Assembly (NCBI RefSeq): GCF_028641065.1 | Contig: NC_073408.1 | Location: forward strand, 1,674,001 to 1,738,000 | Length of the DNA stretch: 64,000 nt | Reading direction: 5' to 3' | DNA from: Leucoraja erinacea | Taxonomy: Eukaryota | Shown: positions 9,435 through 50,400 of the stretch, in pieces | Numbering within the stretch: the stretch's first letter is position 1 | Layout: the number at the start of each line of letters is the position of its first letter | Program-made: the position numbers and the translations under genes | Notes under the pieces: generated by a model | What the model saw: the letters and a program-made list of their open reading frames with translations, nothing else | Told to the model about the DNA's origin: nothing | Databases searched by the model: none

Positions 9435-9677
9435 TGTTTAAGAAGGAACTGCAGATGCTGGAGAATCGAAGGTTACACAAAAAAGCTGGAGAAACTCAGC
9501 GGGTGCAGCAGCATCTATGAAGCGAAGGAAATAGGCAACGTTTCGGGCCGAAACCCTTCTTCAGACTGCAGAAATGAATCCGTCTGAAGAAGGGTTTCGG
9601 CCCGAAACGTTGCCTATTTCCTTCGCTCCATAGATGCTGCTGCACCCGCTGAGTTTCTCCAGCTTTTTTGTGTAACC
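9435..9677 (-). mobile_element. Penelope-pLTR-derived fold-back element (most complete copy)
   Basis: ~96-bp inverted arms (~9471-9566 / ~9582-9677) around a 15-nt loop, plus 36-nt tail; TSD CTCTTTACTAA(C/A)TA at 9421-9434 and 9678-9691. Confidence 0.9.
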
Positions 9678-16760: not shown

Positions 16761-17062
16761 GTAAGTCTTCGTTTCTGCCCATTTGTGGCGGGTGGAGAGT
16801 ACTTCATCGGACCCGCCCGCTGTCGTCTGTCGACAGACCCTCATTCTGCAGAATGGGGACAAACAAATGCCGGAGTAACTCAGCGGGACATTTGTGCCTG
16901 GGGCAGCATCTGTGGAGGATGTTTCTGGTCGAGACCCTTCTTCAGTCTGGCCCGTTCCTTCTCTCCACAGATGCTGCCTGTCCCGCAGAGTTTCTCCGGC
17001 TTTTCTGTGTCTTTAGAGTTGACTAAACGTGATTTATTTTACCTTGTATTTGTACACTGGAC

Positions 17063-17098
17063 CAAAGATCTTATAGCAGATTCGCTATAAGATCTTTG
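17063..17098. mobile_element. 36-bp palindromic micro-MITE with 8-bp TSD
   Basis: CACTGGAC-[CAAAGATCTTATAGC AGATTC GCTATAAGATCTTTG]-CACTGGAC. Confidence 0.85.
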
Positions 17099-17337
17099 CA
17101 CTGGACGGCTCGATTGTCATCATGTAGAAACATAGAAACATAGACAATAGGTGCAGGAGGAGGACATTCGGCCCTTCGAGCCAGCACCGCCCTTCATTGT
17201 GATCATGGCTGATCGTCCCCTATCAATAACCCGTGCCTGCCTTCTCCCCATATCCCTTGACTCCACTAGCCCCTAGAGCTCTATCTAACTCTCTTAAATC
17301 CATCTAGTGATTTGGCCTCCACTGCCCTCTGTGGCAG

Positions 17338-31031: not shown

Positions 31032-31273
31032 TTTAAGAAGGAACTGCAGATGCTGGAAAATCGAAGGTAGACAAAAGTGCCGGAGAAACTCAGCGAGTGC
31101 AGCAGCATCTATGGAGCGAAGGAAATAGGCAACGTTTCGGGCCGAAACCCGGAAGGGTTTCGGCCCGAAACGTTGCCTATTTCCTTCCGGGTTTCAGGCC
31201 GAAACGTTGCCTATTTCCTTCGCTCCATAGATGCTGCGGCACCCGCTGAGTTTCTCCGGCACTTTTGTCTACC
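31032..31273 (-). mobile_element. Fold-back element in last IL18 intron
   Basis: TSD AAGATATTGAAGCA (31018-31031 / 31275-31288). Confidence 0.88.
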
Positions 31274-35668: not shown

Positions 35669-36968
35669 AGTAAACATGGTCACAGTCATTTTAATAGTTA
35701 CGTCAATTCTCAAAAGTTTACAGGATGTGGTGTGATGGGCATTGAAGTAGACGTCACCGTTGGCAGAAGCCTAACGTGCCCAAGCTGAGTAGCCCGGTAA
35801 CCTTTATTAACTGTGCTGTAATCAACCAGCAGCATTTAGAAAGAGAAACATTCAGTGTTTGAAATATATGCAATTTCATCTGAAGGCCTCAAGCTGATAC
35901 ATTAGTTCTGTGTCCCCTGCTGGCTGAATATATTCAAATTTCATTTCAGATTTTAAAAATCTGCATTTTTAATTTTTTGCTTCCAGACATTGGTTCACTG
36001 GTATAATTCCCCTCGCCAAACATACATAACTATCAATATTTTGTCATGTCCCCGTTTCGCTAAAAAGGTTGTTATAGGAATCCTACAACTCCTGCAATCC
36101 AAAACTCCAATTTCGGAATAAAAGATCTTTGAAGCAGCAGGTGACAAGAAACCATTGCCACTGCTTAATAAGGTCAGGACAAAGTATTGTAGTTGATAGA
36201 CTTGTTGGTGTGGAGTTAGAAGCCACTTCTACAGGTAGGCAGTACATTTGGAAACTGATGCAAGGTCAAACTTCATATATCGGAGGATGAATTTGATTAA
36301 CCTGTGGTGTTAAAGATCATGGAGTGTATGGACTTGTATCCCTGACCATCCACAATATCTATGAATGTAAATGAAATAGCTTTGGCCTGCTTCCATGTTT
36401 CTTTGTGGTTCCCACTGTCTACAAAGGTGACCATTGCTTTGAACCAATGTTCATTAGAGATACAGCGCGGAAACAGGCCCTTCGGCCCAACGGGTCCGTG
36501 CCAACCAGCGATCCCCGTAAAATAAATTTTAGTAAAGGAACTTAATAAAGTTCCTTTTGATAGGCTGATCCACAAGATTCATATGCATTATTATGCGATA
36601 GTTTGACTTCAGAACTGGTTTACCCTCAGATGACAGAGGGGAGTAGTGGAACGCTACCATCTTGACTAGAAGCCTATGACTAGACGTGTTCCACAGGGAT
36701 CTGTGCTGGGACCTCTGCTGTGTGCACTATATATGAATGAATTAGATATAAATGTGGGTGGGTTGGTTAGTTGCAGATGAGACCAAAATTTGTGAAATTG
36801 TGGAGGGTGAGGAAGATTGTCAAAATAATTAGTTACAGATTTAAACAGATCGGTTACCCAGTTAAAAGGAACATCTTAAATGTTAGAAGAAAGCTCTTCA
36901 TCACTGGAGATCCAGCACAGATTGTACAATTGTAACTTGTATATAGATACAAACAGTTCAAATCTTAC

Positions 36969-43643: not shown

Positions 43644-43955
43644 CTGAAGAGTGGTCTCGACCCGAAACGTCACCTATTCCTTCGCTCCATAGATGCTGCC
43701 TCACCCACTGAGTTTCTCCAGCATCTGTGGAGCGAAGGAATAGGTAACGTTTCGGGTCGACCCTTCCGGGACCCTTCAGTCAGAAGAAGGGTCTCGACCC
43801 GAAACGTCACCTATTCCTTCATCAGTCAGAAGAAGGGTCTCGACCCGAAACGTCACCTATTCCTTCGCTCCATAGATGCTGCCTCATCCGCTGAGTTTCT
43901 CCAGCAATTTTATCTACCTTCGATTTTTCCAGCATCTGCAGTTCCTTCTTAAACA
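43644..43955 (+). mobile_element. pLTR-derived element with three direct hammerhead-like cores
   Basis: C(T/A)GAAGA..GGTCTCGACCCGAAACGTCACC at ~43644, ~43781 and ~43828; flanked by GGTCCC(T/A)GAGA. Confidence 0.8.
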
Positions 43956-44790: not shown

Positions 44791-46649
44791 ATCTGGATGG
44801 GCAGGTGGAGGGCTTTGCAGTTTTCAAAGCAGAGCTGTGGGCAGTAAGGTACAAGAAAGCACAGTAGATCAGGTGACCAGAGGACAAGGAGCATAAGTAC
44901 TGACCATCAGCAAGCCAGAGAAAGGGACACTAGCATGAGAGAACAGTTTACCTGCAGTTGGAGACTTAGGGTTAGGGCGAGGATTACCCTAATCGTAATG
45001 CATGATGTTTTTCCTTTTCCCCTGACTCTCAGTCTGAAGAAGGGACTTGACCCAAAATGTCACTTATTCCATTTCTCCAGAGATGCTGCCTGTCCCACTG
45101 AGTTACTCTAGCGCTTTGTGTCTATTTTAAATGTTATAATGATCTCAGAAGATGCTGGAGAGCTGAATCAATGTTAAAGTGGACAGTCGATGCAATAACA
45201 ATGAATGTCATTCGTTATTTAGATATCTTGCAAACATCCCAGTGTAGTCGTGAAATGTGCGCGGCGATACTAGTTGCTCCTGTACACAGGTGTTCCACAA
45301 CTGTTACCACATGTTGAAGTTTGTTTAAGAATAAGGGGTAAGCCATTTAGAACTGAGACGAGGAAACATTTTTTCTCACAGAGAGTGGTGAGTCTCTGGA
45401 ATTCTCTGCCTCAGAGGGCGGTGGAGGCAGGTTCTCTGGATGCTTTCAAGTGAGAGCTAGATAGGGCTCTTAAAAATAGCGGAGCCAGGGAATATGGGGA
45501 GAAGGCAGGAACGGGGTACTGATTGGGGATGATCAGCCATGATCGCATTGAATGGTGGTGCTGGCTCGAAGGGCCAAATGGCCTACTCCTGCACCTATTG
45601 CCGATTGTTTCCAAAAATCATTCACCCAATTCATCAGTCTACTGCGTCAGAGGGAACTGCAGATGTTGGTTTAAACCAAAGATAGACACAAAAGACGAAC
45701 TGAGGGAGGTTCTCTACCCAAAACGACACCTATTCCGTTTCTCCAGAAATGTTGCCTGACCCACTGAGCTACTCCAGCACTCTGTGTCTGTTCTTCAGTA
45801 AAGAGTCATAACCTCCACCAGCCATTGAGGATTGAGAACCCGCGCCGATACAAGTCTCAGCGTGTTCTGAGTAAATCACAACACATTCAAGGTGGCTATT
45901 CTTGCAACTTTTGCTATGCTTAGCTCGCTCTGTATTCATGCTGTAATCCATGTCGCAATACAATAAGCAACGCTCCGTTCCTACCTCAAATAACCAGGCA
46001 TCGCCTCCGACAGAGTTCTCACCCGGCAGAAGATGCCCACAGTCCAGCCAGCCGCTCTCTCTAAGCCGCCTCCATCTATACGGGACTGCTCGCAACCCGG
46101 AGCGGACCTGTCCACTGTATAGAAACGTGTCTGCAATCCACGTGTGGGCTAACTCATGACTGTCACAAAGATAGACACCAAATGCTGGAGTAACTCAGCG
46201 GGTCAGCCAGGCAGCATCTCTGGAGAGAAGGAATGGACTGTTTCACACCGAAGAAGGGTCTCGACCCGAAACGTCACCTATTCATTTTCCCCTAGAGATG
46301 CTGTCTAACCCGCTGGGCTACTCCAGCATTTTGTGTCTATCACAAGTTTAACACGTCACTGCTTTCCAATTCATTCCCTTCAGCAGCAAGGAAACAACCA
46401 CATACTGTTCTTTAGAAGAATTTTAAAAACCGCTCCTATTTGGAAGTCAAAATGATCGCCGTCAGGTTAAAGTTACCTACCTCTGAGGGTCTAACAGTTG
46501 CGTGTCCTCTCGCCACTGAGCGCACCCCGTCTTAGAGCAATCTATTTATTCCAAGAATCTGCCCATTGTAAACAAGATTCCACCCCCGCACCGCTTCAGT
46601 GGTCACCTCTGCCAACAAGCGTCACTGCCATCTGCTGGACGTGCAGGAC

Positions 46650-46687
46650 CAAAGATCTTATAGCAGAGCTCTGCTATAGGATCTTTG
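46650..46687. mobile_element. 38-bp palindromic micro-MITE with 8-bp TSD
   Basis: TGCAGGAC-[CAAAGATCTTATAGCAGAGCTCTGCTATAGGATCTTTG]-TGCAGGAC. Confidence 0.85.
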
Positions 46688-47135
46688 TGCAGGACCACAT
46701 GTCTCACCTTTCATTGCAGACCGGGGAACATTACGCTGGAAATCAGAATCAGAATCCTACTTTATTCGCCAAGTATGTTTTGCAACATTCAGTCATACCA
46801 ATAAAAAGCAACGGAACACACACAAAATACATTTTAACATTCACTACAGCGACTTCTCCACATTCCTCACTGTGATGGAAGGCGAAATAAATGTCCCACC
46901 CTTCTTGGAAATCCAAAAATAACATAGAATTCGCCGGAGATTGGGCAAGAATCTACAGATTAGGTCAGATACATACATATATACATTGACAATAGGTGCA
47001 GAAGTAGGCCATTCGGTCCTTTGAGCCATTCAATGTGATCATGGCTGATCATCCACATTCCTGCCTCCTCCCCATATCCCTTGATTTTACTTCGGAGTCA
47101 CGTGAGTTGGACAAGGTGAAGAGAAAACGGACCTG

Positions 47136-47425
47136 GACCGCAGGCTGCCGCGGGGAACCAGGTAGGTCCCGGCAGCCGGCAACTCTAAACGTCCAGCGGT
47201 TCCAGGAACGCAGGCTGTCAGGAACCGGGTAGGTCCCGACAGCCGACAGCCACCAGCAAAGATCTTATATGCTATAGGATCTTTGGCCACCAGCGGATCC
47301 AGGAACCGCAAGGCTGCGGGGAACTAGGAAGGTCCCGGCAGCCGACAGCCACCAGCCCCGAGTTACCAGCTGTTCCAGGAACGCAGGCTGCGGAGAGCCA
47401 GGTAGGTCCCGGCAGCCGATAGCCG
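47136..47425 (+). repeat. ~60-70-bp tandem repeat in the DIRS 5'/gag region
   Basis: About four copies of CGCAGGCTG..GGAACCAGGTAGGTCCCGGCAGCCG. Confidence 0.8.
47257..47285. mobile_element. 29-bp palindromic micro-MITE with 8-bp TSD, nested in DIRS
   Basis: GCCACCAG-[CAAAGATCTTATATGCTATAGGATCTTTG]-GCCACCAG. Confidence 0.85.
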
Positions 47426-50400
47426 GGTACCACCGGCGCAGGCTGAGCCAGCTGTATACCTGGAAACAACGCAGCGGTCTGCAGGCAGGCAGGCAGGAGT
47501 CGGTCCGGCCAGAAGGGGTTACTAAGGTCCACTTACCGACTCCAAGCTGAATCCAGCGCCATGAGTCGTACAGCTCAAAGCAGCGCAGCAGGCTGGAGGC
47601 AAAGCCCAGCAGGATTCAGCCCGGCCGATCATACTCATCTGAGTCCGGCCGAAGGGGCGCGCTGCCCGAGTGCAGCAGAGGTCCGCCCGTGACTTGCCCT
47701 GGGAGATGGAGCAAGCTCACTATGGGAGTCTTCTCACTCCCACAACAGCACCTTATCGAGGGCTGTAAAACAATGCATCTCCCTCGATAGAGGAATGCGT
47801 TGTGGACCAGGGCTGGGCTGGTCCGGAAGAAGGGGACGTGGCTGAAGAAAACGACAGTGTGCAGGGGGTGCAGAATCCTAAGGAGCTACTGGGAGTGATC
47901 ACCAAAATTACAGATCAACGAAAAGTACCATTACAGACCAAGCTGGCGGCCAGCATCGACTACCTGTACTTCCATCTTCTGCAGGAGCAGGCAACAAAAT
48001 TACGCAGAAGTATAGGCCTCCTGTGAAATTTACTTCGTTTTAAAAATGCCTGCAGCAAACAATGCGATCTGGGTTGTACAGTGGGACTGGCACAAAAACC
48101 CAGGAGGTCAAACTACAGAAGATTTCAAAACTTCTGACAGCGGGCATATGATTGGTTGCTCGCCCAGACGATGGTACAGAGAAAAGCTCGACAAAGAGAT
48201 TAAAGCCGTCGGGCTCATAACAGCGTCATCAGCAACGACAGCACCCCTATGCAACCACCAGCAGGTGAAAGCATGAGGGCCGCGCAGCACCATGAAGGTC
48301 CTTTCAGGCCAAGGCCCAGAGCGACCCTCATGGAAAATGTGCCAACCCCGCACTCCGGCGCCTCTTCCGCAGAAGAGGCAGAAATTGAAGAAAGGGACGT
48401 ACCACCGGCAACCAGGTAAGTAGGTGGATCTGGTTCCTTCCAGAACATAAAGGTGTATGACCTGTACTAACAGGGGGAATATTACACTTGTTTTGGGAGA
48501 CATGGAGGGATCGTTGTCGACACCCAAAATTTATCTGGATGGGGCAACTATGGCAGGGCATAGCGCTGCCTAATGGTCTAACTTCAGCCCCAAGACTTTT
48601 CACCAAGATATTAAAACGGGCCTTGGCAATATTAGAAACAAAAACATATTGTCATGGCATATCTTGATGATATATCAATTGTGGGGAAAAAACCCTGATC
48701 TTGCTAAATCAGCAGTTTTAGCTACCAAACATAGGGTGAAACTCTGGGGTCATCTCCATCCAGATAAATCTAAGTCGACGGCATCCACAACTGGAATTTC
48801 TGGGATTTACAATTAACGTTATCCATATGTCTGTAACATTGCCAAAGAGTAAAGCAGACTTGGATAAACCTACAAAATAATTAATTACTAAAAACACTGG
48901 TGTTGGGTGCGTTTTATGGTCTAAAAGCCTACTGCTAACAATGCACCATCTGCATGTCCGCCTACAAATTGATAATATCACAGTGGTGGCATATATTAAT
49001 CATATGGGAGAAAAGATCGATACCATGTGTCAATCTGGCCAATATATTTGGCTATGGTGTGTTAACATACATAGTTGACTATTAGCAAACTTACCTACCA
49101 GGTAAGTAATACTGAGGCACACACCAGGTCATGAAAATTCAATGACAACATCGAATGGCTGTTGGGCCACAAAAAAGTTGCTGATATTACCAAAAGAGGG
49201 ACACCAGATATCGATCCATTTGCATCTAGACCCAATCACCAGTTACCAACATATGCCGCTTGTGAACCACACTTGGGGCAGCAGCAATGGACGTTACTCA
49301 CTTAATGCGGAATAATTGTTTACAATGTTTTTCCCTCCTGCTTCATCAGTCGGATCCGAAGCAAAAACACATATGGACTCAACATCAAGTGTCTTGAAAG
49401 TACCTGATTGGCCTACACAGCCATGGATCCCTGTGGTCTCGGACATAGTTTCTGAACCATAGTCCACCATGCTAGATCCGGGCTGGCGGACAGGACCATG
49501 AGCGTGATCACGGCGGCCTATCAAGAATCAACAAGGGCTGGTGTAGCGTATAATACAGCGACAATCACCAACGTCCTGGGAATTCCTATCCAGCCTTCAT
49601 GTAGATGAAGGACTGAGCTGCAGTACTATAATTATACAAGAGTGCCCTGTCAGCTTGTTGGTGGCAGGCGCCACGACAACTCTCCATGGGATCTCACCCT
49701 CTAGTTGTCAAACTTATGAGGATTATTTCAACACCAACCCTCCTAGAGGGAAGTACTCCCAGATATGGGACGTCAGTGTTGTACTAACATTGCTAGGGGC
49801 ACCAGCAATGTCCCTGTCCCTGGGGGGGGGGACTGACATTTAAAAACAGTATGCTGATAGTACTGGTCTCATCTCTAGGGGTCCAGTTTCTACATAAACT
49901 GAGACTGGGATAAATGATGGCATCTCCATAAAAGATAACTTCACATATTAGAGCTTGTTAAACAAGATAGACGATGATCATCAGGACAACATTTGGAATT
50001 CCAGATATACCCAACTGACACCCGACTATGTGTAATGACACACCTTTTATTATACCTTAAAACTACTAAAACTTAAGAGGAAGTAAATTAGCACTATGGG
50101 CAGCCATAAACAGCCTAATGGCCGGGTATCAGCACTACCATCGCTAGATGGCTCAGACAGGCTTGGGAGCTGCTGGGGTGGATACTGACATCTTAAGTTT
50201 CTATCCACAAGGGCAACAGCAACACCGGCAGCTAGAGACAAGGAAGTGCCTATGGACCATATCCTGGAAACAGCAGGATGGTCTAGAGAAAAACCTTCCA
50301 ATTCTTTATAATAAGCCAATAACCAAACCTGCGGTATTGCAGAATCAAGTTGGAATTCTGCAATATATTTAGCCCTGGGGAGGATTATTTTGTTAAAATA

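Follow-up and report, generated by a model that had tools for sequence, protein, structure and literature searches.

Micro-palindromes in skate DNA as probable end-joined excision scars of a P-type transposon

Three micro-palindromes in a window of skate DNA, the window being the whole stretch of 64,000 nucleotides that was analysed, are probably the donor-site excision footprints of a DNA transposon of the P superfamily (THAP9-like), their putative parent. The DNA of the window is of animal type, rich in repeats and interrupted by N gaps. An earlier note had placed three ultra-short elements at 17063-17098, 46650-46687 and 47257-47285, each flanked by an exact and different 8-bp repeat, and all three were confirmed, with lengths of 36 bp (site 1), 38 bp (site 2) and 29 bp (site 3). 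The duplications (TSDs) and the elements that they enclose, together with the host of site 3, are given here with the evidence for each.

17055..17062, plus strand: site 1 left TSD, CACTGGAC; a direct repeat found in the window scan
17063..17098, no strand: scar 1, 36 bp, an 18-nt arm, a 3-nt filler and a 15-nt arm, with T at position 9 of both arms; from the window sequence alone
17099..17106, plus strand: site 1 right TSD; a direct repeat found in the window scan
46642..46649, plus strand: site 2 left TSD, TGCAGGAC, in single-copy DNA; flank depth single-copy in 4/4 runs
46650..46687, no strand: scar 2, 38 bp, arms of 19+19 nt, or of 20+20 nt over a 2-nt GC microhomology, with T/C at arm position 9; vacant in organisms B and D but occupied in A and C
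46688..46695, plus strand: site 2 right TSD; a direct repeat, and the comparison of runs
47249..47256, plus strand: site 3 left TSD, GCCACCAG; the sister unit carries one copy, at 47348
47257..47285, no strand: scar 3, 29 bp, a 13-nt arm blunt-joined to a 16-nt arm; length identical in a contig of organism C
47286..47293, plus strand: site 3 right TSD; a direct repeat found in the window scan
47084..50558, plus strand: host of site 3, a decayed DIRS-type retrotransposon with 5' tandem repeats and RT/RNase H remnants; inverted termini and homolog domains

A scan of the whole window for 8-bp direct repeats that immediately flank inverted arms of 10 bp (20-60 bp, one mismatch at most) recovered only these three palindromes, and 100 simulated windows gave one in total. 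The 14-nt arm pattern, searched for with up to two mismatches, was matched seven times in the window, six times within the elements and once as a stray at 36118; the mean expected by chance was 0.94 and none of 100 shuffles got to seven. All three elements fold into strong hairpins (z -6.6 to -7.7). Of the arm motif that had been given, the left arm of site 3 retains just 13 letters. An asymmetry between the arms had been seen in two copies and was found again (T/C at sites 2 and 3, absent from site 1), and the idea that the parent element had distinct left and right ends is supported.

Sites 2 and 3 are only ~570 bp apart, three copies being too few for a test of clustering, and local hopping is known for P elements (PMC7776569). 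Other short hairpins in the window (9550-9598, 31136-31169 and 43751-43803) belong to an abundant dispersed repeat, are without 8-bp duplications and are unrelated to the scars. A long G-rich tandem repeat at 57300-58750 adjoins an N gap and yields spurious long ORFs.

The reality of the insertions was investigated in contigs from four of 24 sequencing runs, one per organism label (A-D), which were compared with the window over 46450-47450, a region that contains sites 2 and 3. The organisms lie 1-5% from the window (C ~1%, B ~2.4%, D ~5%). In both B and D, 46 bases of site 2 are missing from a single-copy contig, equal to the 38-mer and one copy of the TSD, and the joint at this empty site has an ambiguity of 11 letters, as predicted from the sequence. 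Site 2 is a true insertion because the orthologous site is empty, with one TSD copy, in these two organisms. A contig of organism A with 0 differences enters scar 2 by 26 nt, which is beyond its centre; run X1 is possibly the window's own source. The organism C contig at 46450-46787 covers site 2 and both flanks with no long insert and with 14 unplaced gap letters, and these must fall in the high-depth zone, that is in scar 2 or in the repeat near 46745-46787. Should they sit in the scar, site 2 of organism C (run X16) would be a 24-bp scar, against 38 bp in the window. Another contig of organism C (47231-47304) spans site 3 with one substitution and 0 gaps, and the identical length of scar 3 in the window and in organism C fits inheritance and is not evidence of independent repair. 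The earlier note had asked whether the short elements were an assembly collapse, and when this was put to the test for sites 2 and 3 the short form held in the organism C contigs; since these contigs cross both sites, the short forms occur outside this assembly.

Summed depth over scar 2 was 1,689, 2,493, 1,411 and 2,063 times that of the single-copy flank in the four runs, values that are read as hundreds to low thousands because overlapping contigs are counted repeatedly, so that depth is an overcount and not a copy number. A form of 33 bp, 5 nt shorter than scar 2, was present in all four runs (6, 6, 3 and 4 contigs; 4-6% of depth), as was a 28-bp form at site 3, and insertions at site 3 yielding 31 and 33 bp were among those listed in two of the four. 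Insertions at the centre of scar 2 stayed below 5% in each of the four runs, and a slightly longer class is therefore not common. The query was the 38-mer, and the commonest length therefore cannot be told from the run data. Recurrence and abundance are in this way matters of observation, together with the insertion, the TSD and the anatomy of the junctions.

The description of site 3 as an interruption of a DIRS tandem-repeat unit was borne out: the scar lies within the 5' tandem repeats of a DIRS-type element, the sister unit of which shows the 8-mer once, at 47348, whereas site 2 lies outside it in single-copy DNA. The host is bounded by perfect 24-nt inverted termini at 47084 and 50558, and its homologs contain RVT_1, Dam and integrase domains. 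It is on these termini and homolog domains that the DIRS identity is based and not on Pfam, which gave nothing above cut-off in 11 fragments or three read-through frames of the remnants. The homolog of highest identity, one of 56 matches, was a little-skate protein (57% over 28% of the query); this match and the LINE tails of the window point to a skate or ray. The termini of the element (47084-50558) are perfect despite heavily broken reading frames, and an inverted repeat pair at 50551-50860 (84 nt, 96%, 142 nt apart) overlaps its right end.

With the arms of scar 2 as the measure, the copies are made up of 18 nt, a filler of 3 and 15 nt at site 1, 20+20-2 at site 2 and 13+16 at site 3. All of the centres thus differ, while the outer 13-15 nt of both arms and both copies of the 8-bp TSD are intact at 3/3 sites. 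What remains at each site is what characterises an excision footprint, namely the TIR tips only, with intact ends and a variable centre showing microhomology, a blunt join or filler. In Drosophila, P transposase cleaves one strand at a position 17 nt into each inverted repeat (PMC7776569), and 17 nt stay on each donor end as a 3' tail (PMC2895639). The arms described here exceed this limit of 17 nt, reaching 18 nt at site 1 and 19-20 nt at site 2, which implies either a longer stagger or extra synthesis. Microhomology joins were computed for tails of different lengths: with tails of 20 nt the only products of at least 28 bp were 28, 33 and 38 bp, and with tails of 17-19 nt there was no product above 28 bp. 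A stagger of ~20 nt is suggested because tails of 20 nt bring in just the 33- and 38-bp products, which match the recurrent lengths. A caveat that must be applied to the 20-nt tail is that it was read from the scar itself and letters 18-20 could stem from fold-back or from synthesis during repair. The 33- and 28-bp forms can equally be produced if a 38-mer slips between its GC repeats.

What sets P transposition apart is its long staggered cut, and the reports of such a cut that were found in the literature concern the Drosophila enzyme only. In the mechanism proposed here a longer element with the ends CAAAG...CTTTG would have inserted and given rise to the 8-bp duplication; the insertion was seen directly at site 2, and the greater length of the element is deduced. 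A P-type staggered cut would then have left the outer inverted repeats on the chromosome as 3' single-stranded tails, of perhaps ~20 nt here and of 17 nt as shown for Drosophila P. Judging from the junctions, both tails would have been trimmed to a variable extent and then joined end to end, either by pairing of the self-complementary GC found at positions 14-15 and 19-20 of the arm or by way of a few filler bases, and each scar would then be an independent and immobile product. We infer the longer parent, the enzyme, the position of the cut and the repair pathway. Much of the earlier interpretation survives in this scheme, including an origin from a transposon, the 8-bp TSD, the DIRS host and derivation from a longer element, but end-joined P-type excision had not been named; the 'abortive gap repair' that had been suggested is a close cousin of an end-joined excision footprint.

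Comparison with the footprints left by Drosophila P (PMC2895639) reveals a close likeness, with an 8-bp TSD on either side of a pair of trimmed TIR tips that face each other head to head, joins that are blunt, short-filler or over a 2-nt palindromic microhomology, CA...TG ends and a GC-rich TSD. A hand count from Table 1 of that paper showed that both TSD copies were kept in 63/66 isolates, that 19/66 were joins of 30-32 bp over a 2-nt palindromic tip and that 18/66 contained filler. However, the TIR sequence is a different one, the arms reach 18-20 nt as against at most 17, and the Drosophila footprints were induced in laboratory flies whereas the scars described here are natural, shared between species, high-copy and in a vertebrate, with a transposase that is putative. 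The zebrafish Pdre2/THAP9 system (PMC10983969) is also vertebrate, with an 8-bp TSD, CA...TG ends and some copies that have lost internal sequence, but its TIRs are 13 bp long and of other sequence, and the available text of that paper reports neither a stagger length nor TIR-tip scars. Zebrafish THAP9 excisions in cells are described there as larger flanking deletions and not as TIR remnants (PMC10983969), which counts against reading the micro-palindromes as P scars. The P-MITEs of Anopheles gambiae and BuT5 (PMC1562414, PMC3698922) are likewise non-coding with TIRs and an 8-bp TSD, but as there described they keep subterminal and internal sequence and form mobile families, whereas the micro-palindromes are without internal sequence. 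Non-autonomous hAT elements share the 8-bp TSD and the YARNG termini; unlike the micro-palindromes, the shortest tabulated in the available text is 135 bp (PMC3014272), and hAT excision proceeds via flank hairpins with no TIR tips (PMC5499845).

The assignment of the inferred parent to the P superfamily is likely on the present analysis. The CAAAG ends with an 8-bp TSD had been taken to fit either hAT (YARNG) or P (CANRG); the hAT fit was upheld, but CANRG was not found as a P motif in the literature search. The CA...TG ends are those of Drosophila P and Pdre2 but are common to hAT too. When the TSDs were compared with the P target core GTCCGGAC (PMC2577343) they matched at 5, 5 and 3 of 8 positions (background 0.018, 0.018 and 0.28), which is weak evidence, and the target motif of hobo is described as similar to the P core (PMC3276498). 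In run X4 the loose ends that follow 46687 have a consensus (71 contigs, agreement 0.37) that starts with GTCTAAAC and is equally close to P and to the Charlie-type hAT motif NTCTAGAN, which like the YARNG termini is taken from PMC3014272. Elements of the hAT, Transib and MULE groups are described as being cleaved where the element ends, a hairpin being formed on the flank (PMC5499845), and because the hairpin forms on the flank they would leave no TIR tips. A hAT footprint has flank-derived bases and no TIR remnants, whereas the structures found here are TIR tips with intact TSDs; this lowers the case for a hAT footprint, not for a hAT derivative.

A hAT derivative is one form of the view that a longer TIR or foldback element, of hAT or another family with an 8-bp TSD, lost its centre by extreme internal deletion, through aborted gap repair or hairpin or cruciform deletion and with no staggered cut. 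The fit of CAAAG and the 8-bp TSD to YARNG, the Charlie-like flank consensus of run X4, the strong folding of all three elements and the 14 unplaced gap letters over site 2 in organism C are in its favour. It predicts broad lengths, however, whereas 3/3 copies are at most 38 bp with no longer copy or solo end in 64 kb, and the runs held no central insertion class of at least 5%. Excision of hAT elements leaves no element DNA to prime joins, and both letters of NTNNNNAN are present in 0/3 TSDs, so that an origin by internal deletion is considered unlikely. Collapse of long hairpin elements to their tips during assembly or library preparation has even less to recommend it. Run X1 could come from the very source of the window, the comparison of runs covered sites 2 and 3, and the platforms used for the compared runs are unrecorded, but organism C contigs span both sites with no long insert and the organism A contig runs past the centre of scar 2 without a difference; an artefact of this kind is very improbable indeed.

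A mobile ultra-short MITE of 38 bp could instead have been amplified by a transposase acting in trans, the forms of 36, 33, 29 and 28 bp being later deletion variants. The micro-palindromes do share with MITEs a high copy number with TIR and TSD, the depth over the 38-mer being 1,400-2,500 times single copy in 4/4 runs (an overcount); discrete lengths recur, the orthologous empty sites are clean and no parent has been seen. A MITE family nevertheless has uniform length and conserved internal sequence, whereas here there are lengths of 36, 38 and 29 bp and three centres, one of them with filler, though the compared organisms are only 1-5% apart. Two transposon ends 38 bp apart are also too close for synapsis. 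P ends need transposase binding sites inside the TIRs (PMC7776569). Because all three centres differ and P ends need such internal sites, the ultra-short MITE family that had been entertained is the less likely reading, and it is given a distinctly small chance of being correct. End-joined P-type excision remains the preferred explanation of the three sites.

Attempts to find the parent were made both in the window and in sequence collections. Relaxed searches for the arms in the 64-kb window gave the six known arms and four weak strays with no partner or TSD; the window contained no longer copy or solo end, nor any shorter scars of 20-22 bp. A metagenome scan with the 19-nt arm gave 14 loci, about the number expected by chance apart from L007, and 0/14 had a TSD-flanked pair. 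Viral scans gave nine single-arm loci without a partner and none that were paired, and three hairpins that matched the paired pattern in GTDB were rejected as unrelated, 0/3 having a TSD. Neither a transposase nor a parent element was found in the window or in the metagenome, viral and GTDB collections. Longer skate repeats beginning with the same terminal motif may exist.

Two of the loci deserve description. L007 (2962-2994), on an animal-looking non-coding metagenome contig, is a palindrome of 33 bp that shares the 19-nt arm pattern and has the GC junction of the recurrent 33-bp form, and has no flanking 8-bp direct repeat; it could belong to a related family from another animal or be a hairpin that arose by chance. 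L024 (2001-2054) is a bacterial hairpin with similar arms, lies just upstream of an ORF and has no TSD, and is probably unrelated. From its motifs we take this ORF to resemble an IS1595-family transposase.

A literature search found no publication on this palindrome family or on natural genome-wide P footprints, although subscription papers and Repbase lay largely outside it and the absence is weak evidence. The arm sequences were encountered only in two unrelated bacterial papers, and the available text of the skate genome paper mentions only TcMar (PMC12361510).

Excision scars as such have long been known from laboratory flies. It is put forward tentatively, at a little less than even odds, that a native vertebrate (skate-lineage) P-like transposase with a stagger of ~20 nt remained active through recent speciation events and produced germline end-joining scars in their hundreds to thousands, so that the cleavage geometry of a vertebrate P/THAP9 enzyme and germline repair choices are readable from the genome sequence alone. 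If this is true, natural scars in a vertebrate would show a cut geometry common to vertebrate P-like elements and possibly varying in length, and would amount to thousands of independent germline end-joining products from one defined substrate. Such scars would also serve as presence/absence markers between close species, and would constitute a class of repeat too short for the usual annotation.
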